Origin: an uncultured bacterium
GTDB taxonomy: Bacteria; Verrucomicrobiota; Kiritimatiellia; PWTM01
Direction: 5' to 3'
Assembly (NCBI GenBank): GCA_938010045.1
Contig: CALLFZ010000036.1
Span: forward strand, 38,801-102,800
Length of the DNA stretch: 64,000 nt
Shown: in pieces, positions 3,441 through 48,414 of the stretch
How positions within the stretch are numbered: the stretch's first letter is position 1
How the letters are laid out: every line of letters starts with the position of its first letter
Made by a program: the position numbers and the translations under genes
Notes under the pieces: generated by a model
What the model saw: only the letters and a program-made list of their open reading frames with translations
Database searches by the model: none
Told to the model about the DNA's origin: nothing

Positions 3441-4936
3441 CGGTGGGCCTCCGTTGCGGCCTCGAGGAGCGGTTCGAACGCAAACTTGGGCGCCGCCGAA
3501 CGCACTGGCTCGGGGTAGCGGCCGGTGAAACATCCCGTGCAGTAGCGGTAGGGCTGCGAGAGCTCCGCGCGCAATCCGTGGAGGCTTAGGTAGCCCAGAG
3601 TGTCGGCGCCGATGATCTCCGCGATCTCGTCCGGCGCGCGGGTGGCCGCCGCCAACTCTGAACGCGTTGGAAAATCAATGCCGAAGTGGCAGGGCCAGCG
3701 CACTGGCGGGGAGGCGATCCGCACATGCACTTCCGTGGCGCCCGCCTCGCGCAGCGCGCGGACGCGCCGCCGCACCGTTGTGCCCCGCACAAGAGAGTCA
3801 TCCACCACCACCACCCGCCGCCCGCGCACCACGTCGGCCACGATCGCAAGTTTGAGATCCGCCGCATCCGTCCGCTCGGCGCTGCTCGGCTGGATGAAGG
3901 TGCGGCCGATGTAGTGGTTGCGGATGAAGCCGAAATCCAGCGGTAACCCCGTCTCCCGCGCAAAGCCGATCCCCGCCGAGACGCCGCTGTCCGGGATGGG
4001 AATCACGACGTCCGCCCGCACCGGGTGTTCCTGCGCGAGCCGGCGGCCGAACCGGACCCGCAGCTCGTGCACGCCTTCCCCAAATAGCCGGCTGTCTGGC
4101 CGCGCGAAGTAAATGTGCTCGAATACACACTGTCCGGCGCGCGCGCGCGCGGCCGCGAACGTTTCGCGGGTGAGTCCCCCCGGGCCGATCCGCAGGATCT
4201 CGCCCGGTTCGATCTCGCGCACGAACTCGGCACCGACCTGATGCAGTGCGCAGCTCTCGCTTGCGATGACATGCCCACCGCCCAGACGGCCGAGGCACAG
4301 AGGGCGGAACCCATACCGGTCGCGCACCGCAATCAGTTCGTCGCGATGCAACAACAGGAACGAAAACGCGCCACGAAGTGTTTTGAGCGCCGCGACCAGC
4401 GGCGAGGGGCGGCGCACAAAGCGCGGGTGCGCGAGCATGTGCAACAAGATCTCACTGTCCGTCCCGGTCTGAAAAATCGCCCCGAGCGCTTGGCAGCGGG
4501 CGCGCAACTCCGCCGCGTTCGTCAGATTGCCATTGTGCGCGATCGCCCAGACGCCATCGCGGCACTCCACCGCGATCGGCTGGACGTTGCGGAGGTCGGA
4601 GGCGCCCGTCGTCGAATAGCGCACATGGCCAATTCCGATCCTCCCACGCAGCGCGGCCAGCTCCGCGGCGTTCCGTTCGGCCATTTCGGCCACCAGGCCC
4701 ATGGCACGCACCGCCCGCACCACCCGGCCGTCGCTAACGGCCACACCCGCCCCCTCCTCGCCGCGATGCTGTAGCGCCATCAGACCCCGCAAAAGAACCC
4801 GCGCGGCGTCCGGGACCCCATAGACGCCAAACAGTCCGCAGTGATGCCGCGGACGGTCGTTCCAGTGGCCCGCCCGCCGCTGGCCGTCTTCGCCGCCCCC
4901 CGCCGGCGACTCATCCGTGTACCCAAAAGCACTCAT
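3437..4936 (-). CDS. purF: amidophosphoribosyltransferase
   Basis: Translation contains CGLFGVYG (Ntn catalytic Cys), [39 protein letters not shown] and the PRTase motif [12 protein letters not shown]. An ATG at 4936 would leave a ~31-aa propeptide; the ORF remains open in frame up to 5041. The stop TGA overlaps the gltB ATG (ATGA). Confidence 0.9.
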
Positions 4937-4984
4937 CGGCGGTCTGTAGGATAGCCGGAAACATGCCAATGTGCCAAAAAAAGC

Positions 4985-5085
4985 GCAACAAATTGACCTT
5001 GACGATGTTGTAAATGTGCCGGCAACGGATATTGGCGACAAATATGTCGGATCAGGTCGCCGTTTCGCACAAATGTGTCATCTGA
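4985..5085. promoter_or_regulatory. four direct copies of an ACAAAT(G/A)TG(C/T)C-like near-palindromic site in the AT-richer purF upstream region
   Basis: The sites aacaaattgacc, gtaaatgtgcc, cgacaaatatgtcg (CGACA-N4-TGTCG inverted repeat) and gcacaaatgtgtc (CACA-AA-TGTG) are spaced 23-31 nt apart, 50-150 nt upstream of the purF start. Confidence 0.3.
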
Positions 5086-5440
5086 CGGCGTTCGGACGGC
5101 GCGAACGACGAAGCGCCGTTTCGCGTCATCGCTGTGGGCACTCAACGTGACGGACATGACGCCATACTCATTTGTGGGAAGGACGGAACCAGCACGGCCG
5201 CGGCGTACGTGCCCTGCATGTACCCGATGGGCATGGGCGGCACGATGGCCGGTCCAACCCTTGGACGGTTGCCGACGCGTATCTTCCAAACCTTGGTCAT
5301 GGGTTCGGAGTGTTGGCCCTGGCCGCGACGAGCCGATTGCGCTTCCGATTCTTTTAAGGGGATCAAATGGGGACAGGCACTGGCCCAGAGAGGTGCCGGT
5401 CCCCTTTGGGGCTGCATGGCGGCTGACGCGAGGCAACTGC

Positions 5441-5548
5441 CCGCGACGTGCCTGTCCCCAGGGAGGATGCCCGCGACGTGCCTGTCCCCAACGGCCGTCC
5501 CCAACGGCCGCGAGTGGCTGCGAGGGGCTGTGAGGTGCCTGTCCCCAA
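5441..5548 (+). repeat. island A of the dispersed 16-nt repeat GaGGTGCCTGTCCCCA (3 copies, plus a tandem GTCCCCAACGGCC x2)
   Basis: gacGTGCCTGTCCCCA occurs at ~5445-5460 and ~5475-5490, and gagGTGCCTGTCCCCA at ~5533-5548. The same 13-16-mer recurs at 14318-14385 and 47767-47955. Confidence 0.7.
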
Positions 5549-5853
5549 GGAGACCCCGGCGACGGGCGCGGGGTGGTTGGGGTAAACGATTCCTCCATTC
5601 GCCGAGGCCAGTATTGGCCGCTCATTTCCTTTTCCGAACAACGCAATCGGTCGGGCTGCGACGGTGATCGCGCGCGGCTGGAGTGCCGGCTGCCCCCGCC
5701 CCTGCAGGGCTTGCGGACGCCGAGCGCCGTCCAGCGCAAATGCCGAAGCGCCCTCTCTTGGCGGCCGATGGCCGAAGCCTTAGTAATATCCGATGGGACG
5801 CGCCGCCACGTCCGCGTTGGCGCCATGATGATGCCGTCGAAGGTTGCCCGCTC

Positions 5854-8800
5854 TCAGCGAGGGGAGGCGGCGGGCGCGACGCGGCTGAGCACCGCGCGAG
5901 CATGCCGGGCGTAGTGGCCGTGGAGGTCGTCGGCATAGCGTTCGAGGATCGAACGCCCGAGCCCGTCATGGTCCCCGCAGCGGTACAGCGCGCGCGCGAG
6001 CGCGATCTCGCGCAGTGCGTCGCGCCTCACGCGCGTATCGGTGCCGCCTGAAAACCGTCGCGCTTTCATATCGGCGGTTGTGGTGACCCAGTGACCGCTC
6101 ATACCCGGCCGCCGCAACACTTCGGCGAGCACGGGTGCGGCGCGCGGATCGCCGAGCGCCTCCAGCGCGAGTGCGACCGCGCGGTGATGCGAAAACGCGA
6201 CGGTCGAATCAAGCGTGCGAGCCTTCTCGAGCAGCGGCTCGAGCGCCTCCGTCGCCCGGGTTCGGCCGAGCGCGATCATCATCGCATCGAGCGGCGCGAG
6301 GCTCGGGCCAAACTGGCCCATGGCTCGGAACTCCCACCCATCCGCCCAGCCGCGCGCGCGCACCGCGGCGGCGAGCGTCGGGGCGCCGGTCGGATCGCCG
6401 AGCATACCGAGCGTCATCGCATAGGTGAGACGCGCCTCGTCGTTGGTGGCGGCGGCGTACGCGGCGCGCAGCCGAGGCAGCGCGCGGTTGGTGTCGGCGA
6501 GCACCACCTCGAGACCGGTCCAGTCCTCCGGCAGCACGCGCACGGCCCAGTCGAGCCGTTCGTCGGGTATCGGTGGGGTGTCATCATCGCTCAGTGCCGT
6601 TTCGGGCACGATGCGCTTCTCGAGGAGATGGCGCTGCAGCGCGCGCACGTCGAGCGCGCGCAACGGACAATCGTGGCGCGCCGCCCAGGCCGCCGCGACA
6701 CCCGCCGCATAGCCGTGGTTCTGGATATCCGGCTGCATGCGCAGTACGGGCAGCGCGTCGCGATGCGCACTGATACCGAGGCCGATCACAAGCAGCCGTT
6801 CGACGCCGCGCGGCAGCAGCGCGCGCAGTGGCACCGGCACGGTGATCGAGGAGCGGTCGGGCGGGCGCAGCGCGAAGATCGAGTGAACGGTGTAGCCGTG
6901 GGTGTCGAAGTTGCTCTGCGCGAGGGCGATCGTGTCGCGCCACGTGCGGCCCAGGTAGAGATCGAGGGGCGAGATCTCGACCTCGCCGACAATGCGCCGA
7001 CGCTCGCGGGTGTCGATTAGGCGGGCAAGGTCCCACGCCTCGGCGAACAGCTCGCGACCCACAATGAACGCGCGCCAGATGTCCATGATATCGGTCTCGT
7101 CGACGAAGGTGTAGTCGGTGTTGATGTAGTGCCGGCTTAGGCTGCGGGGCGAGAGGCCGGTGCCCTGCACCGCGACCTCGGCCTCGTCGGTCCAGACGCA
7201 GGGTGCGCCGGCCGCCGCGGCGATATCGGCGTTGCCGGTGGCGTCCACCACGCAGCGTGCGCGCACAACGAGCGGCCCCTCCGGCGTTGCGACCACCACG
7301 CCACCCACGCGATCGCCCTCCAGCAGCGCCGCGATGCCCAAACAGCCGAACCAGATCTCCGCCCCGGCCCGACGCAGCTCGCGCCGAAGCCACTCGCTCT
7401 TATGTTCGACGTTCCACCGGTGGGCGGGTTGGGTCTGACCGGACAGCGCCGCAACGCCCGCGTCCATCTCCGCGGTGAAGCCTTGCCGGTAGCCGTGGTA
7501 GTATGCGGCGATCTGCCCCCACGTGCCGACGCCGCCCAGGCCGTACAACGACTCGATCACGAGCGTGCGCACGTCCTGGCGGGCCGCGCCGATGCCGGCC
7601 GGGGCGCCGCCGGTGCCGCCTCCGACGACGATCACATCATACTCCGCGGCGACCTCGAGCGCATGTGCGTCGAGTTCGATCCGCTCGAGACCCGCCCAGC
7701 GGGGATGGGTTTCGGGCGGGACAAACCGCGCACGTGCGGCCGGCGGTCCGTCGGACTTGCTGAGGGAGCGGAGCCGCACACGGCCGGCCGGTGGGGTGCG
7801 TCGGGCCTCCTCGGCGGCCGCGCGACCGATCCGCTCGCCGACCCGCAGCCACTCGTCCGGACGCAGCATCGCGGGCAGAGCCGCGCGCTCCACGGCCATC
7901 CGCGGGCCGAGCACCCAGACCTGCTCGATGCCGGCCGGCCGAGCGACGTCGAGTGGCCAACGCGCCGCGCCGGGCCACGGCCCCGCCATGGCCGCGCGCG
8001 CGACAATCGGAGTCGGCGCGACCTCGAAGAGCGTTTCCGAGGCATCGCGCAGATCCGGACTCCAGGTCGCGTCGCGCGCGTCTTGTTCCACGTCCGCGCG
8101 CACGGGCCATCCGACATCCGCAAAGGGCAGCACGAGCCGGTACTCGATCAGCGGCAGACGCGATCTATCCTCTGCGCGCACGAAGAGCGGCGGGTCGTGG
8201 GGAACCGGCGTTGCGATGCCGGAGCGCACGGGTTGGCCGCCGATGACAACTCGGCGGAACTCACGCGGGCCGGGCGGCATCGGTTCGAGTGTCGCGCCGG
8301 CCATCCGCGCCACGATCGCGTTCGGCGTTGCATCGAGAATCACGGACGCGCGGATCGCTTGCAGCCCGGAGCGGTTCGCGATCACGAGACCGGCCGGACG
8401 GCCGTCTTCGGCCACGAGCACGGCGAAGGGGTGCGAAGCGAACAGGAACGGCACCTCCGCCGCGATCAACGCGTTGTCGAGCGTACGCTGAATCCGCAGC
8501 GGCCGGGTCACGCGCACCCGCCGCGGCGCGGTCTCGGCCGGCGGCGCTGGCGCCTCGATCGCGAGCTCGGCCAGCAGCACCCGCCGGGCATCGGCCGCGG
8601 GCTCGACCTCGACGCGCACATATCGCTGGGTGGCAGAAAGTTCCGCCTCGATTGGCTGTGAAGCCTCCTCGGCGGGCAAGTCGGTGCGGGCGTTCCGCAC
8701 GGCCACGGGCGCGCTCCAGTTCTGCCCATCGGCCGAGACCGAGACCCGGAGTCCACCGACCGCGAAATCCGCGGGCCGCTGGTAGGCGAACAACACGACA

Positions 8801-12796: not shown

Positions 12797-13891
12797 CTAC
12801 AGCAAGACCTGCACGCCCACGAGCCACTGGCTGGGGCTGTCGCCCCAGCGATACTCGACGCCGCCGCGGATGTTGTGCCCCTTGCCGAAAATGTGGACGC
12901 CCACCGTGTAATCCTCCGACGTTGCGCTCGCGTCGGGATCCTGCCAACTGTACTTCGCCACCGGCATCACCTTGCCGATCAACACGCCGGTCTCGATGAA
13001 CGCTGTGTGGCCGCGAAACAGCGCGTTGTCCCAGTCGTACCACGCTGCGTTCAGCGTAAGACCCACCCCGCCGACTTCGAAGCCCGACTGCAAATCCACC
13101 ACCCAGTTCTCGGAATCAACGATCTCCGGCGGTGGCACGGGACCCGTCTGCCCCTCCGGAAGAGCCACCACGAGCTGCGTCGCCTTGTCCTGCCGGTCAA
13201 TGCCCGCGCCGATCGAGAGGTAGTCGCCGCTCTTGCCCAGCCGGCACTGGTTGAAGAACCAGCCGGACTCGGCCTCGCCGATCAGATTCACCGCCAAGTG
13301 CCCCGTCAGCCGCAGATCCGCGTCGGGGTTCTTGTCGCCGCCGCTCTCATCGTAGCCATCGAAGACGCCCACAAAGTAGGCGATGCGCTTCCCCCAAAAC
13401 GTGCCGTGCAGCTCGGCGCCGATGTCCCGCCACACGAACGTGTTCGGGAGTTTTAGCACTTCGACGTTGTAATCGTGGCCGAGCAGCGTCGTCGCGCCCG
13501 AGCGGCTCTCGAACGAGAAGGGCAGCAGAATCAGACCGGCCTTGAACCAGTGGTCGTCGAGGTACGGGAGACGCAGGTCCACGAAGACATCCTGCATCTT
13601 GATTTCATTCGGCGAGCCGTGGCGGCCCGCATTCGGACTGTCCGTTTCGGCAAAGAACTGTACACCATCCATGACTTGGCCCGAGACGATGATCCGTGCA
13701 CGCCGGATGAAAACATCTGTTTCCGGCGTCCCATCCTCGGTCTGAGTGGCCTGGACCTGGCCGAGAAATCCGAACTGCATCCAACTGTCCGGTCCGAGTT
13801 CGAGCTTCGGGCCCGCAAGGGCGGCACCCGGAGCGAAGACAACCCCAGTCACCAGGGGGATCAGCGCAGCGAATCGGCGAGCAATATTCAT
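12797..13891 (-). CDS. putative outer-membrane porin (beta-barrel)
   Basis: Start MNIARRFAALIPLVTGVVFAPGAALA (signal peptide). Alternating hydrophobic and aromatic beta-strand pattern; C-terminal GVQVLL. Confidence 0.45.
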   Translation of the reverse strand: MNIARRFAALIPLVTGVVFAPGAALAGPKLELGPDSWMQFGFLGQVQATQTEDGTPETDVFIRRARIIVSGQVMDGVQFFAETDSPNAGRHGSPNEIKMQDVFVDLRLPYLDDHWFKAGLILLPFSFESRSGATTLLGHDYNVEVLKLPNTFVWRDIGAELHGTFWGKRIAYFVGVFDGYDESGGDKNPDADLRLTGHLAVNLIGEAESGWFFNQCRLGKSGDYLSIGAGIDRQDKATQLVVALPEGQTGPVPPPEIVDSENWVVDLQSGFEVGGVGLTLNAAWYDWDNALFRGHTAFIETGVLIGKVMPVAKYSWQDPDASATSEDYTVGVHIFGKGHNIRGGVEYRWGDSPSQWLVGVQVLL

Positions 13892-14317
13892 TGTTCCTTT
13901 GTCCTCCCGCTGGTGCCTCCGCCGCCCTCCACACCATCCGCGGCGAACCACACAGCTTCCAGAGTCAGTATGCGTGGGCATCGCGAGAAACTCAATCCGA
14001 CCGCAACGATGCGGAACCGTTGGCGCGGCGGAGAACGAGCGGCAAACAAAAACGTCGGTGACGGGTGGCGAACATCGTTGACCCCAACGCCCCCGCGCTA
14101 TACGCCGGTTGTTCCCGCCGATCCCCTAAAACACGAAATTTTCGATCCTTCAGGCCTCGACGCGGGTACAGGCTGCGGGAGATTAGCCATTCGCAGGCCT
14201 TGGATGGTCGGGTTCCGCCCCGACCCTACGGCCAATGCCTATGCTTCGGCAATTCGCGGACGGCGGGGACGCCGTCCCTCCAATGAAATCGCCAGCCTCT
14301 GTCCCGAGCCTCGCGCG

Positions 14318-14385
14318 TGTGCCTGTCCCCATGCTCTGTCCCCAGCCTCCGACCTTTTACGCCGGCCGTTCATGTGCCTGTCCCT
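14318..14385 (+). repeat. island B of the dispersed GTGCCTGTCCCCA repeat (2 copies plus a degenerate ctctgtcccca)
   Basis: tgtGCCTGTCCCCAtgctCTGTCCCCA at ~14318-14344 and catGTGCCTGTCCCTa at ~14371-14386. Confidence 0.65.
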
Positions 14386-14594
14386 ATCCTCAGTGGTAGG
14401 ACGCTGGCCGGGCTCGGGCGGTGAGCTGGCGGCGTGAAGTACCATGGGGTTGCCCAAGCCATCCGAGGCTTCGCGAACAAGATAAAGCGCCCTGACGTGC
14501 GTTCTGCCTGCATCGAAGACACAAAACGCCCCGATCAATGTTCAAATTTTTTGATGCAACCCCGAAGAAAGATCAGGTGATACAATCGTTAGAG

Positions 14595-15707
14595 CTAGCG
14601 ATAGGGCGAGGAGTGTACGCGGAAAAATCGGCTGGTCCATGCGCCAGCCGGGACTTCAACCGTGACGTTACGATCGGCCGCGATCAGGTTCGTCGCGCCC
14701 GCCCAAGGTGCCCAACTGACGGGCGAGATCAACGAGTCGGCCGTCTCGAGTGTTGACTGGATATTGCGAGGCACAAACCATGAGAGCTGCCACGCTGGAC
14801 CCGAGGTCGCGACCACCGCGATCATCGGAACGGGAAAAGCGACGGGCGCTGCGTTGAGGCCGGCCACCCACGACACCCACGCGCCCTGACCCGGCACGCC
14901 CCATCGCAACTGGCCCACGGCGGCGGCCACCGAATCCGTCACGGCGCTCCCTACACCTTCTTCGAACCGGAACCACGCGGCCAAGCCCATGCGCTCTTCC
15001 GGCGGCAGCACGCGCCACATCACGTTGCTGATCTCACCCGCTGCAAGCGCGCGTGTCCAGATGCGAAACTCATCCAGATCGCCGCGAAAGGACGGATATT
15101 CCGGCCCCGCATCATGTTTTTCGGCGCCGAGCACCAGAAACGGATCGGAGTCCGGCCATGCGGTTGTGCGTCCGATACGGTAGGCCAAATTCCCCGGCGG
15201 CCCCGCCCCGGCGGCGTCCAGCGCCCCGTCCACATGGATGCGCATTGCGCCGGTGGATTGCCGCACCAGCGCCACATGATGCCATGCGCCATCACCGACG
15301 TTGCGTCCGCCGACGATCGTGTGTCCCCAGCTTCCGTTGTGCGCCCCGAACGCCAGCACGCAGGTGGCTCCAACCCGCCCGATCGCCACGCCAAAATCGC
15401 CATAATCGCCACCGCCGTATACATCACGGTCCACAATAATGTTGCCGGTGATCCATCCGTCCCCATTGGCGCCGCTCTGCACGGTGCCAGCGTTGTTCGA
15501 CCACGACGCCCGCATCCAGAACTCGATCGTAAAGTCTCCGCCGACATTCACCGCCGGCGCCGTGACCAGCGGGATCTTCACTCGATCGGTTTGTCCCGTT
15601 CCAACACCATGAAACCGAACCGCGAACCGCGACCCCTGAGCGGCCGACGCGAAAGCCACCGCGGTCAGTGCAGACGCGCACACATACCAGATGCAGGTCA
15701 GCCTCAT
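14595..15707 (-). CDS. secreted LamG / concanavalin-A-like lectin-glucanase domain protein
   Basis: Signal peptide MRLTCIWYVCASALTAVAFASAAQ. Contains FTIEFWMRASW, AWHHVALV and DLDEFRIWTRAL, the pattern typical of Laminin_G_3. Confidence 0.6.
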   Translation of the reverse strand: MRLTCIWYVCASALTAVAFASAAQGSRFAVRFHGVGTGQTDRVKIPLVTAPAVNVGGDFTIEFWMRASWSNNAGTVQSGANGDGWITGNIIVDRDVYGGGDYGDFGVAIGRVGATCVLAFGAHNGSWGHTIVGGRNVGDGAWHHVALVRQSTGAMRIHVDGALDAAGAGPPGNLAYRIGRTTAWPDSDPFLVLGAEKHDAGPEYPSFRGDLDEFRIWTRALAAGEISNVMWRVLPPEERMGLAAWFRFEEGVGSAVTDSVAAAVGQLRWGVPGQGAWVSWVAGLNAAPVAFPVPMIAVVATSGPAWQLSWFVPRNIQSTLETADSLISPVSWAPWAGATNLIAADRNVTVEVPAGAWTSRFFRVHSSPYR

Positions 15708-30341: not shown

Positions 30342-31061
30342 TCAGCCCGCGCGCAGCAACTGTTCCTCGGCCTCCTGCACCGCCTCCAGCATCTGGCCGG
30401 CGTTTGCGGCCGAGCGAAGTCGCGCGAGCAGGTCGGTGTGGTGGCAGAGGGCACCCACGCGCGCGAGCACCGGCAGATGGAGACGGGGGTCGTCGAGCGC
30501 GAGCAGGAAGAAAATGTCCGTGAGCTCCCCATCCGGCGCGCCAAAGGGCACCGGCTGACGCGTGCGCGCGAGCAGGACGAACGACTCCGCAAACAACCAT
30601 TCACGGTGGTGTTCGGGGTGCGGCACCGCGACGCCGCCGGGGAGTGCCGTCGAGCCGAGCGCTTCGCGCGCCTCGAGCGCGGCGAGCAGACCCTGAGGAT
30701 CCGAGACCAAGCCTGTGCGCTCCGCGAAGGCGCTCAGTTCGCGGAGCACCGAGGCGCGGGTTCGGGCGTCGAGCGCCGGCTCAATTCGCGCGGCGCCGAT
30801 CAGGTTCGTCACTCGCAGCGTCGCATCGCCGCGCTCAGCCCGGCGCTGCTGCACGCCGCGGTCGAGAGCGCGCACGCGCGGCGGCGGTAGACCGATCACT
30901 CGCCGCGAGGCCCAACGATCCAGCTCGGCGCGCCGGAAGACGACGCGCGAGCCCGCTCGCTCGTACGGGATTTCGCCGGCCCGGATGAGTTCGCGGACCT
31001 CGTCCTCCGAGACGTGCAGATACTCCGCCGTCTCACGAATGCCGAACGTTCGGTGTGGCAT
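30342..31061 (-). CDS. HTH (excisionase/MerR-type) domain fused to a PTS EIIA type-2 (PtsN-like) domain; putative regulator
   Basis: N-terminus IRETAEYLHVSEDEVRELIRAGEIPYERAGSRVVF (HTH_17-like). C-terminus GGVAVPHPEHHREWLFAESFVLLARTRQPVPFGAPDGELTDIFFLLALDDPRLHL (EIIA-2 fold with the conserved His). Confidence 0.55.
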   Translation of the reverse strand: MPHRTFGIRETAEYLHVSEDEVRELIRAGEIPYERAGSRVVFRRAELDRWASRRVIGLPPPRVRALDRGVQQRRAERGDATLRVTNLIGAARIEPALDARTRASVLRELSAFAERTGLVSDPQGLLAALEAREALGSTALPGGVAVPHPEHHREWLFAESFVLLARTRQPVPFGAPDGELTDIFFLLALDDPRLHLPVLARVGALCHHTDLLARLRSAANAGQMLEAVQEAEEQLLRAG

Positions 31062-36555: not shown

Positions 36556-36629
36556 TGCCGGATGGTGTAATGGTAGCACAGCAGACTCTGGATCTGTTTG
36601 TCTAGGTTCGAATCCTAGTCCGGCAACCA
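36556..36629 (+). tRNA. tRNA-Gln (anticodon CTG)
   Basis: Acceptor stem TGCCGGA/TCCGGCA, D-arm GTGT-AATGGTA-GCAC, anticodon stem-loop GCAGA-CTCTGGA-TCTGT (U33, CTG at 34-36), T-arm CTAGG-TTCGAAT-CCTAG, discriminator A, and an encoded CCA. Confidence 0.8.
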
Positions 36630-36649: not shown

Positions 36650-37741
36650 TCACGCGACACGCAGCGGCATAATCACATACAGAAACGCCTCATCCGCCTT
36701 CAGGACGCCCGGCGTGTCGACATCCGAAATCTCGAAATAGACTTCGTCCGAAACGAGTGTTTTTAGCGGGTCCATCAGAAAATCAGGATTGAACGGGATT
36801 GTCAGCGCCGGGCCGTTGTACTTCACGGGCACCACCTCGCGGGCCTCGCCGACATCAGCAGACTCGCAGAACACCTCCATTTGCCCATCGCTAAAACGGA
36901 GCTGAACAGAATTGCTCGTATCGCTGGTCACAAGCGATACGCGCCGCAGCGCGTTCAGGAATCCCTCCCGACTGAGGGTCACACGGTTGCCGGTGCGCTT
37001 GGGTATCACCTGGCGATAGTTCGGGAACTTCCCTTCGACTTGCGAACTGAACAACATCACGTTGCCGCCGTCCAGCGCCATCTGCTTCCCGACCGCCATC
37101 AACACCACGGAACCTTCACCATCAAGAATACTGATCATTTCTGAAGCGGTACGCGCCGGCACGATCAACGACGCTTCCCGGCGGTCGCCTTCCACTTCCT
37201 GTTCAACCAACGCCAGCCGCCGTCCATCCGTTGCGACCGCCGTCACGCGCGACTCCGAAATTTCGATCAGCACCCCGCTGAGCACCTCACGCGAGAGGTC
37301 CTTCGAGGTGGCATAGACCGTTCGCTGCAACATGCCGCGCAGCGCCCGCCGGTCCAGCGTGCACGACACCGCCCCCTCTAGCTTCGGCGTAACCGGGAAG
37401 TCCTCGGCCGAGATTCCATTCAGGCGAAAACGGACCGCATCGGACACCAGCGTCGCAGAATGCCGTTCGTCCGACGAAATCTGAATCTCCTCCCCCGGCA
37501 TTTCCCGGACGATTGGCAGTAAGCGCTTCGCCTCGAGCGTTGTAGCGCCCTCTTCCGTGATCGTGGCCGCCACGCTTGCGCGGATGGTCATCTTCATGTC
37601 GCTGCCGGTGAGCGTCAGGGTTTGTCCTCGACTCTCGATGAGGACGTTGGAGAGAACCGGCAACGTGGAACGGCTCGCGATCGCGGGGAGAACCGTTTGG
37701 AGTGCCTGCAAGAAATCGGTTCGTGCGACGGTGAGTTTCAT
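36650..37741 (-). CDS. dnaN: DNA polymerase III beta sliding clamp
   Basis: MKLTVARTDFLQALQTVLPAIASRSTLPVLSNVLIE, three-domain clamp architecture, C-terminal MPLRVA. Confidence 0.9.
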   Translation of the reverse strand: MKLTVARTDFLQALQTVLPAIASRSTLPVLSNVLIESRGQTLTLTGSDMKMTIRASVAATITEEGATTLEAKRLLPIVREMPGEEIQISSDERHSATLVSDAVRFRLNGISAEDFPVTPKLEGAVSCTLDRRALRGMLQRTVYATSKDLSREVLSGVLIEISESRVTAVATDGRRLALVEQEVEGDRREASLIVPARTASEMISILDGEGSVVLMAVGKQMALDGGNVMLFSSQVEGKFPNYRQVIPKRTGNRVTLSREGFLNALRRVSLVTSDTSNSVQLRFSDGQMEVFCESADVGEAREVVPVKYNGPALTIPFNPDFLMDPLKTLVSDEVYFEISDVDTPGVLKADEAFLYVIMPLRVA

Positions 37742-37969: not shown

Positions 37970-40900
37970 TTATTGTGGCGAGCTCGTGGGACTTGGAGGG
38001 TCGGCTTCGCGCACAATGGAGCCGTTGGACTCGCTGACAACCAGGATGGAGAAACGCTGTGCGGTGGCGAGCGATGGATCCTGTGTTGAGGCATAGTCGA
38101 ATCGGCCCCGGAGGTCGGTATAGCCGTCTTTGAAGAACTTAACGGTGCCGTCGGCGAGACGGGTGTACACCTTCACATATGCTCCGGCGACAGGTGTGTT
38201 GGAATCCGCGCGGGTGAGCACAAGTTGCCCATACGTTTCCATGAGGTGGAGGCGGAGGGTATTCGCGTAGTAGGCCTGGGTTTGCCGCAGTGGACCTGCG
38301 ACGGCTTCGATCATGAGATCGAGGGAACGAAGGGCCTCAGGGATGTCAACCTGTACCGGGGAAGCGTCGGCTGGGACGTCTACGGGCATGGTGTGAGCCG
38401 GGCGGACGTGCGAGAAGTGGCGGGTGTCTTGGGTCATGAACGGGCTTCGGGAGAACAACAGCTCGAGGTCCATCGGATAGAAGTTGAGTGTGACGGACTT
38501 CAGGCGGCGGCCAGCGATCTCGATGCGGCGGCCGTTGAGGCGGAGGTCGAGGGAGGACTGTTCGGCCGCGAGCTGCTGCTGAACCAGGTCACGATTACGC
38601 GGGTCGGCCACGGTGGCTGCAGCGCCACCTTCGGCCTCGCGGATGTGGGCCAGCAGCGTCTGAACGCGGTTTCGCCAGCGAGGGACGGGGTGCTCGACGT
38701 AGTCGGAGAGGGCTCGGCGCGCCTCCTCGGGCCGGCCACGGGAAAGGGCGAGCCACGCCGTGAGGTAGTCGTACTGGAGACGCTCGGCGATACGGGCCCG
38801 ATCGGTTCGGGCAAGGAGGGCGATGCTCTCGGCGATGCGGTCCTGAAGCGCTAGATAGTAGGCTCCAGCGAGAAGGTCTTCATCGTCGGGAGCCGGTTTG
38901 TAGGCGAGGATGCGAAGAAACTGGGTCCATTGAGTCCTCAGAGCGGGGTTCTGGATGCGCGGTTCGCGTCCCATCGGATGGGCGCGGGCGTTGATGAGCG
39001 GTGAATATTCCAGGTGCTGGTAGAGGTGCCGTTCGACGGGGTTGATGCGGAGAATGGGGCATTCGAGCCAGAGTCCGCACTGGTTCGCGAATGGATGGCG
39101 GGCGAGAAATTGAGCGATGCGCGGCATGTCGTTGTGGAGGATGGAATAGGACCAGAGAGTGGCATCGAAGGCGCGGCGTCGCTCGAGGATGTCGAGGATA
39201 CGGCGATAGGCGTTCGCGTCGCGCAGTCGCCAGGCGATGTCCGCAAGGCGGATACGGTAGAGGTTCTCGCGCTCGAGGTAGGCGCAGACTTGGTCGAGAG
39301 TGGCGTTCTGGGAAATCTCGAACCATGAGGTTTGATCTGAGGGAGGCGGCTCGGCGACGACCTTGAAGTGGGCCGGCTCGGCGCGAGCGAGGACGCCCGC
39401 CTCGGAGGCAACCGTCGCAGGATGGTGGGCGAACTCGCCGGGAGCGGGGAAGTAAAAGAAGTACTCGATTGTGTCGGTTTGGTATGGTTCGAGTACTCGC
39501 GGGACGGGTTCAATGGGCAGCGGGGAGAGGGGGACGGCGCCAGCGGGGATTTGGAGGAGCACGGAGACGAAGTGTCGCTGGGCGCTGGGGTTGGTCAGCA
39601 CCACGCGGGCACCGTAGGGCACGCCGATCAGGAAGGGGCCGGTGACGTAGCGTTCGATGCGTTCCTCGCCCTCGTAACGCCAGCGGTTATCGGCCCGGAA
39701 GAAGTTCTGGGCCACGAGCAGCGGAGCCGGGCCGGGTGCTATGGGTGTGGGGCGCGTTTCACGCAGAAGCAGGATGACGGGTTGTTCGGAGCGTACGATG
39801 GTGCGGCCATCCTTGCGTTCGCGCGCAATCGGCGGCGCCTCGAATGGAAGGTCGAGAACCGCGAGCGCAAGGAGCATTTCGGTGGCGTTGGTCGTGGTGA
39901 AGAGGAGATCGGTCGAGAGGAACGGTGTCGGGTCGGGATGGGCGGCGTACTCGGCCCAGAAGCGGCCCGCGGGGACGAGGGAGGCGGTCTGCGCGGCCTG
40001 GGGCTGGCGGTAGTACGCTTGCTCAGCGAGCTCCTGGGGCATGTCCGGTGCACGGAAGAACGGCTGCGCCGCCTTTCGCTCGGCGGAGAGATCTTCAAGG
40101 AGGAACAAATCCGCATGGCTTCGACGGAGCGGTTCGTCCATTTCACGGTCGGCGGCCACTGCGCGCGCTCGCTGTTCAGCCATCGCGCGGGGGCCCGCGG
40201 CCTTGGGTACGGTCGCCGGGGCCGGTGGAGATGCGGCCAGCGCTCTGAGCGCGTCGGCATTGAGGGCCTCCGTCGCCGCTTCGACGTGCCGTTCACTCTC
40301 GGCGGCGCCGTCGGTCGCCGCGGTGGGTGAAAGGTCGCCAGCCAGAAAGAGAAACCGCCAGTAGAGGTCGGCTTTGGGGCGCGGAGTCTGAGCGGCCATG
40401 TCCGCAAGGTCGCGGGCAAGAGCCTCGCGTTGCGCCGCGGGCAAACGTCGAGCCAGCAGGGCCTTTTCGGCCGCGTTCAGTCGATCATAGTGCGCGGGTT
40501 CCAGCCAGCGGGTCAGGTCGCGGCCGAGCAACCATTCGTCTACGAAGGTCTTCTCACGCTTGTTGGCCAGATAGGGTGCAATCACGGCGTCGAAAAAGGG
40601 GCGATCCTTGTGGTACAGGAAGAGGTGCAGCTCGTGGCAGGCGAACCGCGAATAGAGTTCGCGTTTCTGATCTGGTGTGAGAGCGGGCCAGCGGGTGATG
40701 AACTCGAACTCCGGAAGCACGCTGTTCTTGGTGAGCGCGGAGTAGAAGGAAAAGACCTTCGGAATCGAGTCGGCCGCCGAGACCACGGCTCCCTCGCCGA
40801 CTTCGCGCGTTTCGCCCGGCAAAAGCGGCACGATGTCGAAATGCGGCGCATGGGGCGTGGCGGGGTCGAACGGCCGTTGGAGCGCGCGAGAGGCTGTCTG

Positions 40901-43900
40901 CAGCGGTGGATTGCCGATCGGGAGAATGCGCTCGACGGCGTGACATGGATCGATCGCAAGCACGCGCAGGAACGAGTAGCCGTGAAGATCGCGCCGCGGG
41001 ATCCGGATTCGTCCCTCCGCATCGGGACGAAGGTTCAGGAGGACGGTCGCGGGCCGCGCAAGGAAGTCGAGCGCCCAGGGAGACGCACGCCGTTGCCGGC
41101 CGGATTCCTGGGGCGAAGCAGTGTCGGCGGTGGCGCGGACACCGGCCGCGGGCCCGGCACCGGTGAGTGCCGCGGCGCGGCCGGCGAAGGGGCGCCCCTC
41201 CTGCAGGCGCTCGGCTTCGATGGAGGTCGTGCGCAGCGCCCAGGGATTCAGTAGAAGTGAGGGGCGCTCGGCCATGTTGCCGATGTGTTTGGGAGCACCG
41301 CGCCGGTCGAGCACGTAGCGGAACTCGTCGCCGAGCTCGCGTCCGGACTCGTAGAAGGTTCGCGACTCGGTCCATGTGCGGGCGCGCAGGTCGGGCCATA
41401 CGGCGCCGGCGGGCAGCGAGAAGAAGTCGTCCAGCACGTAACGGCCCGCCGCCACGTGCACGCGAACGTGGGGGGCACGGCTATTGAGGCGGAACACGAA
41501 GTGGTCGGCGTCTCCCGGCTCAGGCAGGAGCTGGAGAGGCTCCATCAGCGGCGTTTCGAGCGCGCGGCGAGCGGAGAGGAGGTAGCGCCCGAACGGATCG
41601 CCCCGGGTGACGCGGACGGGGATCTCCAGCTGACGGGACCGCACGAAGAGCGAGTAGTCGCCGGGTTCCAGGCCTCGGAGTTCGAGTGAGCCGTCCGCGA
41701 TGGCGAGAGCGGCAGAGCGGTCGCGCGTATAGCGCCCTTGGCGGACTTCGAGGAGGGAGAAGTCCGACAAGGCATCGGCGGCGTTGAGCCGCTCGAGCGG
41801 CAAGCGGAGCGGCCGCCCGGCTGTGCCGTGTAACGCAGAGGGCCACCAGCAGCGGTCACGCGGGGGCGTCCAGGTGAACACGGTCGGTTGCTGGCCGTGG
41901 AACTCTCTCCACTCGGCCTCCGAGCGTGGGTCTAGGTTCGGGGGCGGCGCGGCGTCGAGTGAGATCTGGACCTGCGAGATATCGGCCAGCGGGCCGAGGA
42001 CGGCCTGGCCGCGATCGTCCGTCCGCAGTGTGGTGTGGATCGGCTGGCGTGTCCACGGATGTTGGAACTGGCAGTGCAGCGGAACGCCCGCCAGGGGCTC
42101 GCCATTTAGACCGAGGACTTCCGCAACATAGCCCTCGGAGCCCAGCGTGAGCAGAACCTGTCGGGTCGCGAGGGTTCCGAGCAGAGGCGCGACCGGGAAT
42201 TCACGCGAGGAAGTCAGCTGGACCGGCGCTGCGCCAGCGGACATGGTCTTCACGCGAGCGGAGAGTTTGACCTCGATGGATCGGGGATGACGGGGCAGCG
42301 GCACCTCCACCCGGACTTCGCGGTCAAGGGCCAACTCGGGAGAGCGTATGTTGTGCTCGGTTCGGATGTCGCGGGTGTCGGTGACGGTCACGATGAGCAC
42401 GGCCTCTTCGAGGCTGAGCGAGGCCGGGTTCACGGGCTGGCCATGGAGGGTGATCAACGGGCGCAGCGCGAGTGTGGCATTGGCCCCGGGGTGCAGGGAT
42501 TCGGCCACGATCAGCGGACGCGCGTCAAGTTCGTAGGACTCGGCGAGGTGACGGAATCGGACCAGTGAGGCGAATCCCCCGGAGTGTACGACCATCGTGG
42601 CATCGCGATCGGCATCGGGGCGGAAGGGCACAAGAATGCGGCCTTCGGCATCGGGCTCGAATTCGCGGTTGTCGAGCCAGGCGCGCGCGTCGGGAACGGG
42701 CTTCCGCGCCTCATCGAGCACGCGGAACACGTGCCCAGCGGCCGAAAGGTCTTGCAACACCTCGAGCCGGCCCTTCTGCACGAAGGCGCGGCTGCTGCGG
42801 CCCTCGCCGATAAAGTCGATCACCCATACGCCGCGTCCTTGGAGCTCCGGGAAGTCGAATGTGCGTTCGAGGCGCAGATCCTTGGGCTCGCGGAACTCGA
42901 ATTTTTTCTCCGGGAACGAGGGCGCCAGACCGTCAAGATTGATGGCGAGGTTCAAGGGCCGGCGGGTGTCGCGATAGTAGTTCAGCGTATTGATTTCATA
43001 GATCTTCACGATGAGGGTCGGGACGTTTTTGACGAACAGTTTGAGGCGGACGGGCTCGTCGGGCAGGAAGACGGGCGGATTGTCCGGCGCGAAGTCGAGG
43101 TCCACGCGTTCCTTGATCGTGCGGTACTCTTCCGGCGAGATCAGAGCGGCCCACTGCTGCGGGTCTCCAATGCCATGGACGATCTTGGTCTCGGCGAAGA
43201 CGAGTCGGAGGAATTCATCACGGACCCACGGGCGGAACTCGTCGAAGTTCGGTGCATCGCGCAGGAGCCACATGAGGTAGTGGCGGACGATCGGCTCCTC
43301 AACGCGGATCGGCGGCAGGAGCAGCTCCGCGAAAGTCGCATCGAGACGGGCGAGATACTGCGGCTGGTGCAGGGATTCACGGATGGGCTGCGGCAGGTAG
43401 GGCACGTCGCGCGGCAGCTTCAGGTATTCGATGAACCGCTCGCGGCTGGGACGACCAACCTGCAGATCGTGGACAAGTCGATGATACAGCACATTGGCCT
43501 TGAGTGAATTATGGACTGGGTCCAGGCTGCGCACGTATGCCCAGACCCGGTCGAGGTAGGCCTCGCGCTGCTGGACATCAATTTCGAGGTCGGTCTCGCT
43601 GTCGGGGACGAGGCGCGAGAGGTAGAGCGAGACGAACGCGCGCTCGTTACGGAGCTCTGGACGAAGACGGAGGAGCTCATCGAGCTGTTCGAGCGTCAGT
43701 TGCTGGTGGATCGGCAGCTGTCCGAAGGGAGGACTGTCGGCGGTGGCGAGGTCCTCGGCGATGAGCGCGACGAGGTTGGGCAGGTCGGGGCGGCGGAGCC
43801 GCCGGAGCAGGTCGCGCCGCTGCTGCGGGTTCAGAGGAAGGCGGGCCACCGAGTAAAGACCGGCGTCGGTGATCGCGGAGAGATTGGCCCGTCCGTGTAG

Positions 43901-44344
43901 CGCGGATTCGAGGAAGCGCTGTCCGGATATGAGCGTTGGGTCGAGGCGGGTGGGCAGGTCGGGGCGACGCTCGGACAGGCGGCGGCTGTGGTCGAAGGTG
44001 AGGTCCAGTTCACGGCGGAGATAGTCGAGAGTGGCTTTTGGATCGCGAGCGTAGTCGAGCAGCGCCTGGCGGTGGCGCAGCTCGCGTGCGCCCGGCGGCT
44101 CGGCGCCTTTGCGGGCGCGAATCCAGTCGTCGAGGATCGTGCGGACCTCGTTGGCGCGGCCCAGATTCTGGGCGTGCAGGGCACGGAAAAAGTAGAAGTC
44201 GTCGGTGCCGGGCACGAGGTCCGCGAGCGCCGTCTCTCGGTTGGTGGAGAAAGCGAACTGCTCGAGGAACTTGAGGTTCTGGGCGCCGCCGAAGGTGGGG
44301 ATCAACAAAACGGGCAGCCAGACTCCGACGCGACAAATGTTCAT
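37970..44344 (-). CDS. giant (2124 aa) secreted protein of unknown function
   Basis: Signal peptide MNICRVGVWLPVLLIPTFGGAQN. One uninterrupted frame with high GC3. No P-loop, thioester (CxEQ) or other signature recognised. Confidence 0.6.
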   Translation of the reverse strand: MNICRVGVWLPVLLIPTFGGAQNLKFLEQFAFSTNRETALADLVPGTDDFYFFRALHAQNLGRANEVRTILDDWIRARKGAEPPGARELRHRQALLDYARDPKATLDYLRRELDLTFDHSRRLSERRPDLPTRLDPTLISGQRFLESALHGRANLSAITDAGLYSVARLPLNPQQRRDLLRRLRRPDLPNLVALIAEDLATADSPPFGQLPIHQQLTLEQLDELLRLRPELRNERAFVSLYLSRLVPDSETDLEIDVQQREAYLDRVWAYVRSLDPVHNSLKANVLYHRLVHDLQVGRPSRERFIEYLKLPRDVPYLPQPIRESLHQPQYLARLDATFAELLLPPIRVEEPIVRHYLMWLLRDAPNFDEFRPWVRDEFLRLVFAETKIVHGIGDPQQWAALISPEEYRTIKERVDLDFAPDNPPVFLPDEPVRLKLFVKNVPTLIVKIYEINTLNYYRDTRRPLNLAINLDGLAPSFPEKKFEFREPKDLRLERTFDFPELQGRGVWVIDFIGEGRSSRAFVQKGRLEVLQDLSAAGHVFRVLDEARKPVPDARAWLDNREFEPDAEGRILVPFRPDADRDATMVVHSGGFASLVRFRHLAESYELDARPLIVAESLHPGANATLALRPLITLHGQPVNPASLSLEEAVLIVTVTDTRDIRTEHNIRSPELALDREVRVEVPLPRHPRSIEVKLSARVKTMSAGAAPVQLTSSREFPVAPLLGTLATRQVLLTLGSEGYVAEVLGLNGEPLAGVPLHCQFQHPWTRQPIHTTLRTDDRGQAVLGPLADISQVQISLDAAPPPNLDPRSEAEWREFHGQQPTVFTWTPPRDRCWWPSALHGTAGRPLRLPLERLNAADALSDFSLLEVRQGRYTRDRSAALAIADGSLELRGLEPGDYSLFVRSRQLEIPVRVTRGDPFGRYLLSARRALETPLMEPLQLLPEPGDADHFVFRLNSRAPHVRVHVAAGRYVLDDFFSLPAGAVWPDLRARTWTESRTFYESGRELGDEFRYVLDRRGAPKHIGNMAERPSLLLNPWALRTTSIEAERLQEGRPFAGRAAALTGAGPAAGVRATADTASPQESGRQRRASPWALDFLARPATVLLNLRPDAEGRIRIPRRDLHGYSFLRVLAIDPCHAVERILPIGNPPLQTASRALQRPFDPATPHAPHFDIVPLLPGETREVGEGAVVSAADSIPKVFSFYSALTKNSVLPEFEFITRWPALTPDQKRELYSRFACHELHLFLYHKDRPFFDAVIAPYLANKREKTFVDEWLLGRDLTRWLEPAHYDRLNAAEKALLARRLPAAQREALARDLADMAAQTPRPKADLYWRFLFLAGDLSPTAATDGAAESERHVEAATEALNADALRALAASPPAPATVPKAAGPRAMAEQRARAVAADREMDEPLRRSHADLFLLEDLSAERKAAQPFFRAPDMPQELAEQAYYRQPQAAQTASLVPAGRFWAEYAAHPDPTPFLSTDLLFTTTNATEMLLALAVLDLPFEAPPIARERKDGRTIVRSEQPVILLLRETRPTPIAPGPAPLLVAQNFFRADNRWRYEGEERIERYVTGPFLIGVPYGARVVLTNPSAQRHFVSVLLQIPAGAVPLSPLPIEPVPRVLEPYQTDTIEYFFYFPAPGEFAHHPATVASEAGVLARAEPAHFKVVAEPPPSDQTSWFEISQNATLDQVCAYLERENLYRIRLADIAWRLRDANAYRRILDILERRRAFDATLWSYSILHNDMPRIAQFLARHPFANQCGLWLECPILRINPVERHLYQHLEYSPLINARAHPMGREPRIQNPALRTQWTQFLRILAYKPAPDDEDLLAGAYYLALQDRIAESIALLARTDRARIAERLQYDYLTAWLALSRGRPEEARRALSDYVEHPVPRWRNRVQTLLAHIREAEGGAAATVADPRNRDLVQQQLAAEQSSLDLRLNGRRIEIAGRRLKSVTLNFYPMDLELLFSRSPFMTQDTRHFSHVRPAHTMPVDVPADASPVQVDIPEALRSLDLMIEAVAGPLRQTQAYYANTLRLHLMETYGQLVLTRADSNTPVAGAYVKVYTRLADGTVKFFKDGYTDLRGRFDYASTQDPSLATAQRFSILVVSESNGSIVREADPPSPTSSPQ

Positions 44345-46080: not shown

Positions 46081-47517
<1,437 letters not shown>

Positions 47518-47766
47518 CCCGGCCGCCGTCCACCCGACGCCCCCACTCTGACACCCGCGGGCCGATGGCGCTGTGGATTGTTTTTGAGGGGTAAGACGAA
47601 GGGTCTGGATGCGGAGAGGAGAGCGCGTGTGCCTATCCTCGATCGAACGGCTCGCTGTAACTCTGGCGCTCTGCCGCCGGAGGGCCGGCCGATGTCGCAT
47701 CTAAAAATTTGATTCCGCGGACTCTGCCCTCCTTGCTGGTCACCTAGATCGCCCCCCACCAATTTT

Positions 47767-47955
47767 GTACCTGTCCCTCATTGCGGATCATGGCAGCGGA
47801 CTGGGGATAGGCACCTGGCAACCCGTATCGCCGATGACGCGGCCGACACGAGGTGCCTGTCCCCTCGCCGCAGAGGTGCCTGTCCCCAACGCGTTGCTCC
47901 GGCGGCGGAGCGCCGGAGCTACAGCGCAGAGGGGCGAACATGGTGCCTGTCCCCA
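47767..47955 (+). repeat. island C of the dispersed GaGGTGCCTGTCCCCA repeat (3 exact-core copies plus 2 degenerate)
   Basis: gagGTGCCTGTCCCCT ~47850-47865, gagGTGCCTGTCCCCA ~47873-47888, atgGTGCCTGTCCCCA ~47940-47955. Degenerate copies: gtaCCTGTCCCtca ~47767 and aGGCACCTGGCAacc ~47810. Confidence 0.7.
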
Positions 47956-48414
47956 TGACGCCATCCCCAGTCGTGGAGACTCAACGCGACTCCTCACATA
48001 CAACAACGGCCGGAATGACACCGGAGCCCCTCGCCGCGCCCTGCGACGGGTGGCGATGAGCGTCTTCGCCGACACTGTTGTTCGGGCTCCGTGCGCGACG
48101 TCCATTGATCCGAGACGCGCTCGATTCGCCGTGGTTACCGAGCTTCGTCCTGCCGACGCGGGACCATGCACAGCCCGCCACTACAACGCTGTTGCCGCGC
48201 GCGGTGAGTGCGGCGGGTGCCGCGCAGTGCCGAAACTAGTGCGGCACCGCGTTGAAGAGCGGTGGCGCGGCATCGGACAGCAGAGGGCGCGCGACCACCC
48301 CTCGCGCCCTCCCGTCGGCACTCCGTGAGCCGGGCGACTCACAACGCGCTCGTTCGGGCAGATCACCGATCGCGGCGACAGCCCCGTGGCAACGCGGCGG
48401 GACGAGCCCCCACC

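Follow-up and report, generated by a model that had tools for sequence, protein, structure and literature searches.

A conserved 13-nt arm of small hairpin-forming repeats in long intergenic gaps of an uncultured Kiritimatiellia bacterium

A short word, GTGCCTGTCCCCA, recurs in the non-coding DNA of an uncultured bacterium of the Kiritimatiellia, and the question raised by this locus is what kind of element such a 13-nt word belongs to. The DNA analysed, referred to here as the window, is a stretch of 64,000 nucleotides in which the word has seven exact matches, while 0.01 are expected from dinucleotide-preserving shuffles and none of 100 shuffles reached seven. The looser form GNGCCNGTCCCC is present nine times versus 0.54 expected, and the 16-mer form, with up to three mismatches allowed, has 11 matches versus 0.69. 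Chance or base composition as the cause is ruled out by the first two of these comparisons (7 vs 0.01 and 9 vs 0.54). An over-representation far beyond chance had been proposed in a previous sequence-only reading of the window and is upheld here, except that at least eight exact copies were claimed and the count is seven. Strict copies amount to 10 per 64-kb window, and the total rises to about 13 when degenerate copies, including those at 47627 and 47767, are counted in. The copies are partly non-independent, as two of those in the first island below represent a recent exact 23-nt tandem duplication.

All copies in the window are held by three non-coding gaps:

Island A, gap 5041-5854, flanked by two minus-strand genes, one purF-like and the other for an FAD-oxidoreductase.
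Island B, gap 13981-14595, flanked by two minus-strand genes, a 394-aa one of unknown function and a Laminin_G_3 gene.
Island C, gap 47517-48415, flanked by the convergent genes pntB and URO-D (hemE-like).

Three ORFs run across these islands and are considered spurious:

4933-5826, 297 aa, no Pfam match.
13475-14437, 320 aa, no Pfam match.
47765-48328, 187 aa, no Pfam match.

The island ORFs lack the GC1-high, GC2-low and GC3-very-high pattern of the genuine genes, their GC being flat across codon positions. The confinement of the motif to three intergenic islands, as initially described, was thus borne out. Membership in coding sequences had been named as the finding that would tell against it; by Pfam and by GC at codon positions the copies are non-coding, and coding sequence was ruled out as their origin. 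For annotation, it follows that gene callers are likely to predict false proteins across repeat islands of this kind, and that assemblies break there.

The three copies of island A that had been placed at 5445-5460, 5475-5490 and 5532-5547 are correctly located. The distances from the upstream stop codons, given before as 200-450 nt, are 307-486, 209-279 and 460-648 nt for the three islands by coordinate arithmetic. The claim that all copies lie in plus orientation did not hold, because an exact copy at 5368-5380 and one with a single mismatch in the 12-nt core at 47802-47815 are on the minus strand. The copies are unevenly spaced in all three islands (30 and 57 nt in A, 55 nt in B, 23 and 67 nt in C). 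A CRISPR array had been dismissed on this ground, rightly: the spacing varies from 23 to 67 nt, the "spacers" are themselves repeated, both orientations occur, and the sole CRISPR-type Rfam match (CRISPR-DR20) is far below threshold, with 16.8 bits versus a gathering score of 42 (E = 1.6).

The repeated 13-mer is a real conserved arm of small non-coding hairpin-forming repeats that crowd long intergenic gaps. The parts recognised within the islands are as follows:

5368-5405, island A: complete short foldback unit, aaaTGGGGACAGGCAC, 12-nt loop, GTGCCGGTCCCCttt (minus-strand arm at 5368-5380 and a plus-strand arm).
5438-5460 and 5468-5490, plus strand, island A: two solo arms in an exact 23-nt tandem duplication, TGCCCGCGACGTGCCTGTCCCCA, 30-nt period, 100% identical.
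5484-5509, plus strand, island A: arm end with its flank in a 13-nt tandem duplication, GTCCCCAACGGCC twice.
5532-5547, plus strand, island A: solo arm, exact match to the 16-mer, GAGGTGCCTGTCCCCA.
14316-14386, plus strand, island B: exact arm at 14319-14331, one-mismatch arm GTGCCTGTCCCT at 14374-14385, and half-site CTGTCCCCA at 14335-14343.
47627-47640, plus strand, island C: degenerate arm, GTGTGCCTATCCTC, with 2 mismatches in the 12-nt core.
47767-47778, plus strand, island C: degenerate arm, GTACCTGTCCCT.
47802-47865, island C: complete foldback unit, TGGGGATAGGCACC, 35 nt, GGTGCCTGTCCCC (minus-strand arm at 47802-47815 and a plus-strand arm).
47873-47955, plus strand, island C: deletion derivative of the island D repeat described below, with arms at 47873-47888 and 47940-47955 and a hairpin GTTGCTCCGGCG-N6-CGCCGGAGCTAC at 47893-47922.

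The complete unit of island A has a 12-bp stem with one A.G mismatch, and its folding (5360-5412) is characterised by z = -2.1 on the plus strand and z = -2.6 on the minus strand. The complete unit of island C folds better (47795-47872; z = -4.9 plus, -4.6 minus), and the sole non-Watson-Crick pair on its plus strand is a G.U wobble. Island B contains no opposite-strand partner arm and folds no better than shuffled sequence (z = 0.00). Folding of the whole islands is weak (z = -1.45, -2.64 and 0.00). Solo arms predominate in the window, and they have only 13-20 nt in common; the degenerate arm at 47627-47640 shares GGCACACGCGC, in the minus-strand reading, with the island B copy. At the arm end, a tandem duplication of GTCCCCA together with the 6-13 nt that follow it was also found in three independent lineages (loci L016, L038 and L032), which suggests recurrent slippage or re-initiation at the arm-end boundary. 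Terminator-like sites are absent from islands A and C, the 3' flank of the island A hairpin being just TTT, and near island B only an unrelated one was detected (14650-14629). In the Rfam search of the window only a tRNA-Gln reached threshold, and nothing relevant was returned for islands A and D, 17 related loci and the Collinsella hairpins discussed below.

The nature of the arm becomes clear from a further island, D, on a contig that overlaps the window. The window overlaps the ENA contig ERZ6863929:c_000002067347 (contig coordinate = window coordinate minus 17354), and island D lies on this contig 2-3 kb past the right end of the window (L239 1095-2090, approximately window-equivalent 65,960-66,960), in a 1.2-kb gap with two co-directional genes on either side. 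Here a composite repeat with both plus and minus arms stands three times in tandem, and the three copies exceed 95% identity over about 215-300 nt. The order within the repeat is an arm, 36 nt, a second arm, a 137-nt GC-rich interior that includes the hairpin CTCCGGCGGCGGAGCGCCGGAG, an arm in inverted orientation, an AT-rich stem-loop of 53 nt, and one last arm. The arm-closed 137-nt core gave z = -5.8 and -4.7, and the AT-rich unit, folded as DNA, z = -3.9. Island D therefore reveals the 13-mer as the arm of larger foldback units. Aligned with any one of the three copies in island D, the segment 47873-47955 shows 94% identity over 53 nt, and island C is a deletion derivative of the island D repeat; island A has 19-20 nt in common with the repeat. 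Two independent short-read assemblies of the same strain terminate within islands C and D, as expected at repeats. No strain polymorphism was detected at island C, where the second assembly is identical and ends within the repeat.

On the chromosome, the majority arm strand of island D is opposite to that of islands A-C, whereas relative to the flanking genes it is the same, the mRNA strand reading GGGGACAGGCAC; orientation thus follows the genes and not the strand. This shared orientation with respect to transcription, seen in the three islands between co-directional genes, is weak evidence that hints at selection at the RNA level. Polarity with respect to replication was not discernible in the window, in which a single giant gene dominates the GC skew and no origin is visible.

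The motif is patchily distributed among close relatives. The PntB protein of the window is 95% identical to that of a Kiritimatiellae MAG, and in four relatives (87-95% PntB identity) the motif is absent from about 80 kb of unique sequence scanned. Ten strict copies in 64 kb as against none in the relatives indicate a lineage-specific expansion rather than a regulatory feature conserved throughout the clade. Further copies in the same species were sought in metagenomes with a 19-mer, and the scan returned coding matches only. The matches of this 19-mer (GTGCCTGTCCCCAACGGCC) are in JGI metagenome contigs (L243-L251) and are seemingly coding, six having one conserved flank and two having another; they were rejected as repeat copies and regarded as chance coding matches.

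In more distant bacteria, a scan for GGTGCCTGTCCCCA with one genome per species returned at least 120 loci, many of which are chance matches in coding sequence. Among the matches listed, four kinds of non-chance context were distinguished, and a stem of at least 5 bp directly abuts the exact 14-mer in 22.7% of them versus 1.4% of random positions. About 25 of the loci listed, in Planctomycetota, Verrucomicrobiota and a few other MAGs, carry the motif as the arm of a unit. The unit reads (tGAAAAAT)GGGGACAGGCACC, 12-80 variable nt, GGAGCCAGTCCCC(ATTTTTca); interiors and outer stems are unrelated among copies, and the whole units are very stable (z = -9.3, -8.9 and -6.2). The left and right arms of the Planctomycetota units always differ at the same two positions, which gives two A.A or T.T mismatches, and such fixed differences are as expected of imperfect IS ends. 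On a Gemmataceae contig (L098), three consecutive genes are each followed by a unit 0-56 nt past the stop codon, and both complete units carry A-run/T-run flanks. In Chthoniobacteraceae (L109), tandem solo arms stand 18 nt apart near the end of an ORF-like stretch, in the minus-strand reading, an arrangement like that of the window.

In Bacillaceae (Ureibacillus, Halobacillus and Oceanobacillus), the motif belongs to an abundant GGGAC-N9-GTCCC family with the inner consensus AGGnnCCTn, and an extra GGGAC "foot" is often present 3-4 nt outside the hairpin. There are 32 such pentamers in 8 kb of Ureibacillus sequence, all between ordinary genes, and some of the Halobacillus units consist of a classic stem and a T-run. 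In Collinsella (about six orthologous site groups) and several Clostridia, the lone 14-mer forms the loop of an otherwise unrelated hairpin; one such Collinsella hairpin (L060), AAACCACCACAA-TGGGGACAGGCACC-TTTGTGGTGGTTTT, begins at the stop codon and is followed by UUUU. Comparison of the orthologous Collinsella sites revealed presence or absence of the hairpin, an inverted loop (L051) and a deletion between two hairpin copies (L081). Arm-bearing repeats of other phyla usually lie just 3' of genes, with a T-run next in some examples; a terminator is recognisable in L098 (unit and T-run after the stop codon) and in L060 (hairpin and UUUU). The occurrence of the same arm in hairpin repeats of several distant phyla is unusual for an ordinary genomic repeat.

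Two unrelated features were observed in these loci. A second repeat, consisting of several inverted pairs TGTTACAGATCGAGAC/GTCTCGATCTGTAACA with spacers of about 30-40 nt, is present at 2540-2760 of the Collinsella locus L060 and at orthologous loci, and is conserved across species. In a Planctomycetota MAG, an Acido-Lenti-1 RNA (RF01687; 42.3 bits versus a gathering score of 37) was found at L020 6494-6538, about 1 kb from two foldback units.

Vehicles by which the arm might have travelled were also searched for. IMG/VR viral contigs contain 109 single matches, which is at or below chance by an estimate that assumes the size of the collection; there is no enrichment in viral contigs, and a phage origin was rejected. 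No plasmid-borne copies were found in 7.3 Gb of plasmid sequence. An all-against-all comparison of 3,736 ORFs for an enzyme gene shared by the neighbourhoods of the copies yielded only orthologous Collinsella genes.

Evidence for mobility comes from a Planctomycetia MAG (CAWDQE010000014.1), in which one unit of about 100 bp is present in four copies that have 16 outer bases and the conserved arm in common on each side. The inverted repeats of these units are about 29 nt long, and the arms of the window 13-16 nt. Perfect or near-perfect 8-bp direct repeats bound three of the four copies (GGAATGTG/GGAATGTG, GAATGATT/GAATGATT and AAAAAAAC/CAAAAAAC), in every case at offset 16. In the control, 7/8 or better matches at any position occur at a rate of 7.9%. 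When the unit and one copy of the direct repeat are removed, small hairpins are left at two of the sites (AACGGAA-TGAT-TTCCGTT and CGGA-ATGTG-TCCG). Judged from these sequences, the pattern appears to be the one that transposition with a staggered cut leaves when it enters the loop of a pre-existing hairpin, and such insertion would explain the variable yet perfectly palindromic "outer stems" that flank the units elsewhere. The elements IS1397/ISKpn1 and those of the IS110 family target REPs or hairpin loops; they are full-length insertion sequences with their own transposase. The two hairpin-like empty sites resemble their targets, and the difference is that only miniature units are present here.

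A DDE-type enzyme is favoured by the 8-bp duplications, at least in one lineage. To our knowledge, single-strand mobilisation by an HUH-Y1 enzyme leaves no target duplication. Target-site duplication was not detected at the four complete units of this genome or at about 20 further units. Among the loci fetched, no transposase is enclosed by an arm pair 0.4-4 kb apart, and neither a transposase nor an autonomous element with these arms was found near any copy. A Y1 transposase, RAYT or IS200-like gene was likewise not found among the window ORFs scanned or in 2.1 Mb of fetched loci (Pfam-validated IS200 probe).

The best reading of these data takes the 13-mer (TGGGGACAGGCAC on the other strand) to be the subterminal inverted repeat of a non-coding foldback family. 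The islands would then be clustered mosaics in which complete units of a miniature foldback element are mixed with half units and tandem duplicates. The family would be decayed and MITE/REP-like, with the 13-mer as a putative protein-recognition arm, and we assign this interpretation a probability of roughly 0.45. The full unit would consist of an A-rich flank, GGGGACAGGCACC, a variable interior of 12-140 nt, GGWGCCNGTCCCC and a T-rich flank. Its spread may have been MITE-like, with a transposase supplied in trans and binding to the conserved arm, and this would explain why the arm is the one part that stays constant across phyla while interior and flanks vary. Landing would preferentially take place in the loops of existing hairpins, for example terminators, and would thereby produce the palindromic outer stems; both mobilisation in trans and this targeting are modelled on one relative. 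The copies in the window are probably for the most part immobile relics, reshaped by slippage and unequal crossing-over, and would act at most as passive DNA or RNA hairpins downstream of genes.

Several observations count against the miniature foldback element. No target duplication was seen at 24 units, and neither a transposase nor an autonomous element lies near the copies. The most conserved part is subterminal and not terminal, which is unusual for transposon ends, and the lone 14-mer in the loops of Collinsella and Clostridia hairpins is unexplained by a model of paired transposon ends. The window copies are mostly solo arms with 13-20 nt in common, and in the three islands between co-directional genes the majority orientation with respect to transcription is the same. 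There are no copies in plasmids and no enrichment in viruses.

Miniature inverted-repeat elements are known in bacteria from the Correia elements of Neisseria, which are 50-300 bp long and non-coding, have terminal inverted repeats, form long hairpins and can terminate transcription. The present units resemble them in being intergenic, in numbering many copies, in their absence from close relatives and in the target duplication of one Planctomycetia genome, and terminal inverted repeats do bound a short non-coding unit. They differ in that the conserved block is subterminal while the outermost bases vary between genomes and even within one, that interiors are unrelated between copies, and that no target duplication is visible in the genome of the window. 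The family is filed here as a MITE/REP-like foldback repeat family and under neither named class.

An alternative is that the repeats are true REP elements, i.e., single-stranded DNA hairpins copied by a RAYT (HUH-Y1) encoded elsewhere, with the islands as BIME-like clusters. REP-like genomic repeats had been one of three candidates put forward at the outset, and it came nearest, in that the motif is a hairpin arm, non-coding and multi-copy, missing in near relatives and found in distant phyla. As in REP/BIME families, the elements are short imperfect palindromes with fixed mismatches, extragenic, clustered into multi-copy mosaics and sometimes "long". REPs listed next to RAYT genes of subclass 2.4 share the stem (Quentin et al., 2018, PMC6006769, Table S1): PaprA01 is GTAGGGACAGGTCGTGACCTGTCC with the variant GTAGGGATAGGT..., FtafA01 is GGGACGCGAGGCATCGCGTCCC, and GTAGGGGC...GCCC(CTAC) is widespread across many phyla, including "long" REPs with variable interiors. 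The stem GGACAGG/CCTGTCC of PaprA01 is part of the motif, and its GGATAGG variant is also present at window position 47802. The foot and the stem base of subclass 2.4 REPs are kept across phyla (Di Nocera et al., 2013, PMC3733652; Quentin et al., 2018, PMC6006769), and the former study reported REPs of the GTAG type from Opitutus terrae as well as Rhodopirellula baltica. In Ureibacillus, sequences such as aGTAG-GGACAGGTTCCTTGTCC and aGTGG-GGAC... are seen, with a GTAG or GTGG foot at two of four units. The canonical foot of REPs is GT[AG]G or CGTC; in the genome of the window GGAC is preceded by ATGG, TTGG or CTGG in all exact copies, and never by GTAG or GTGG. The window copies are mostly half-palindromes, arranged as direct half-sites and not as alternating pairs; no RAYT or Y1 transposase gene was found in the window or in the 2.1 Mb of fetched loci; the peptides that REPs of Rhodopirellula baltica and Opitutus terrae are reported to encode do not match the motif; and the 8-bp target duplications of the Planctomycetia genome are unexpected under HUH-Y1 mobilisation. 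A true REP family is regarded as unlikely. The Class 3 HUH "CnGA-foot" structures of Planctomycetes were also considered and rejected, as the supplement contains neither GGGGAC nor GTCCCC. A functional element at RNA 3' ends, maintained by selection and not by mobility, is judged to be quite improbable. In this case the hairpins would be terminators or stabilisers, or UGGGGACAGGCACC would be shown to an RNA-binding factor or an antisense partner, and the sequence-only reading had likewise suggested a 3'-region RNA element reading UGGGGACAGGCAC. The orientation agrees, since most copies are so oriented on the mRNA strand in islands A, B and D, as well as in L109. So do the L098 units 0-56 nt past three consecutive stop codons, the two complete ones with A-run/T-run flanks, the Collinsella hairpin that begins at a stop codon and is followed by UUUU, the stem and T-run of some Halobacillus units, and the G.U pair of the island C hairpin, which occurs only on the strand transcribed from pntB. 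Set against them are the lack of U-tracts and terminator-like sites in the three islands, their distance of 200-650 nt from stop codons, the weak folding of the whole islands, the want of an Rfam family and the missing motif in close relatives. The L075 units also stand in both orientations between co-directional genes, and in L051 the loop of an orthologous Collinsella hairpin is flipped.

A DNA-level signal parked in terminators genome-wide would be a different solution: the 13-mer would be selected for recognition by a protein, like DNA-uptake sequences, and tolerated mainly as inverted intergenic pairs. In Neisseria and Haemophilus, uptake sequences form inverted pairs in terminators and are specific to one lineage. 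The present repeats recall the architecture of the Neisseria pairs, with an invariant short word, single or in inverted pairs, variable spacers and a position just past genes, and it is only the word that is conserved between copies and phyla. On the other hand, this word spans several phyla, is patchy among close relatives and has no link to competence; no recognition system common to these phyla is known; the arms of the Planctomycetota units differ consistently at two positions, which is unexpected for paired copies of a single signal; and target duplications were seen in one genome. Such a signal is very unlikely. Scarcely credible is the remaining proposal, that a local transcription factor controls the flanking genes (purF, pntAB, the hemE-like gene and others) with the copies as its operators. 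In islands A and B the next co-directional gene does have a cluster upstream of it, but the flanking genes are functionally unrelated, there is no fixed-spacing arrangement of dimer sites, and the motif stands inside a tandem repeat. Binding sites for a transcription factor or sRNA, the third of the initial candidates, gained no support, given that the 13-mer is found in unrelated phyla, in hairpin contexts and in the 215-300 nt tandem repeat, and that near relatives lack it. A sigma-54 promoter, Shine-Dalgarno or anti-Shine-Dalgarno mimicry, 5S/23S rRNA mimicry and a G-quadruplex were rejected, each fitting only a subset of the copies by eye.

Returning to the miniature foldback element, REP and MITE families are normally species-specific, and one short arm conserved across several phyla without a described family is the unusual feature here. 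A 13-nt arm that remains constant across phyla amid changing surroundings suggests either an enzyme that has been widely transferred or a host factor common to these bacteria. A broader proposal, which we regard as doubtful, is that GGGGACNGGCNCC marks an undescribed multi-phylum family of miniature elements, or a universal signal for a conserved factor, and that the elements insert in hairpin loops and thereby make or remodel gene-end terminators in Planctomycetota, Verrucomicrobiota/Kiritimatiellae, Bacillaceae, Clostridia and Collinsella. If landing in terminator loops and action as terminators were both true, the family would be a mobile source of gene-end signals. Full-text literature searches by sequence returned only unrelated, mostly eukaryotic papers and no bacterial repeat with the motif, and keyword searches returned two REP papers (PMC6006769, PMC3733652) with nothing on the motif itself.

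Some other features of the window deserve mention. The tRNA-Gln(CTG) gene at 36556-36629 adjoins dnaN (DNA polymerase III beta; 36650-37741), whose stop codon is 21 nt away on the opposite strand; dnaA was not recognised near dnaN, and the GC skew of the window has no clear origin signal. The giant 2124-aa ORF (37970-44344, minus strand), which has no Pfam annotation in the gene table for L121, is the only stretch with strongly positive GC skew (+0.10 to +0.20). Finally, the ORF at 30342-31061 carries an uncommon fusion, in which a PTS EIIA_2 domain is joined to an HTH_17 DNA-binding domain at the N terminus, and from this domain composition could be a sugar-responsive regulator.
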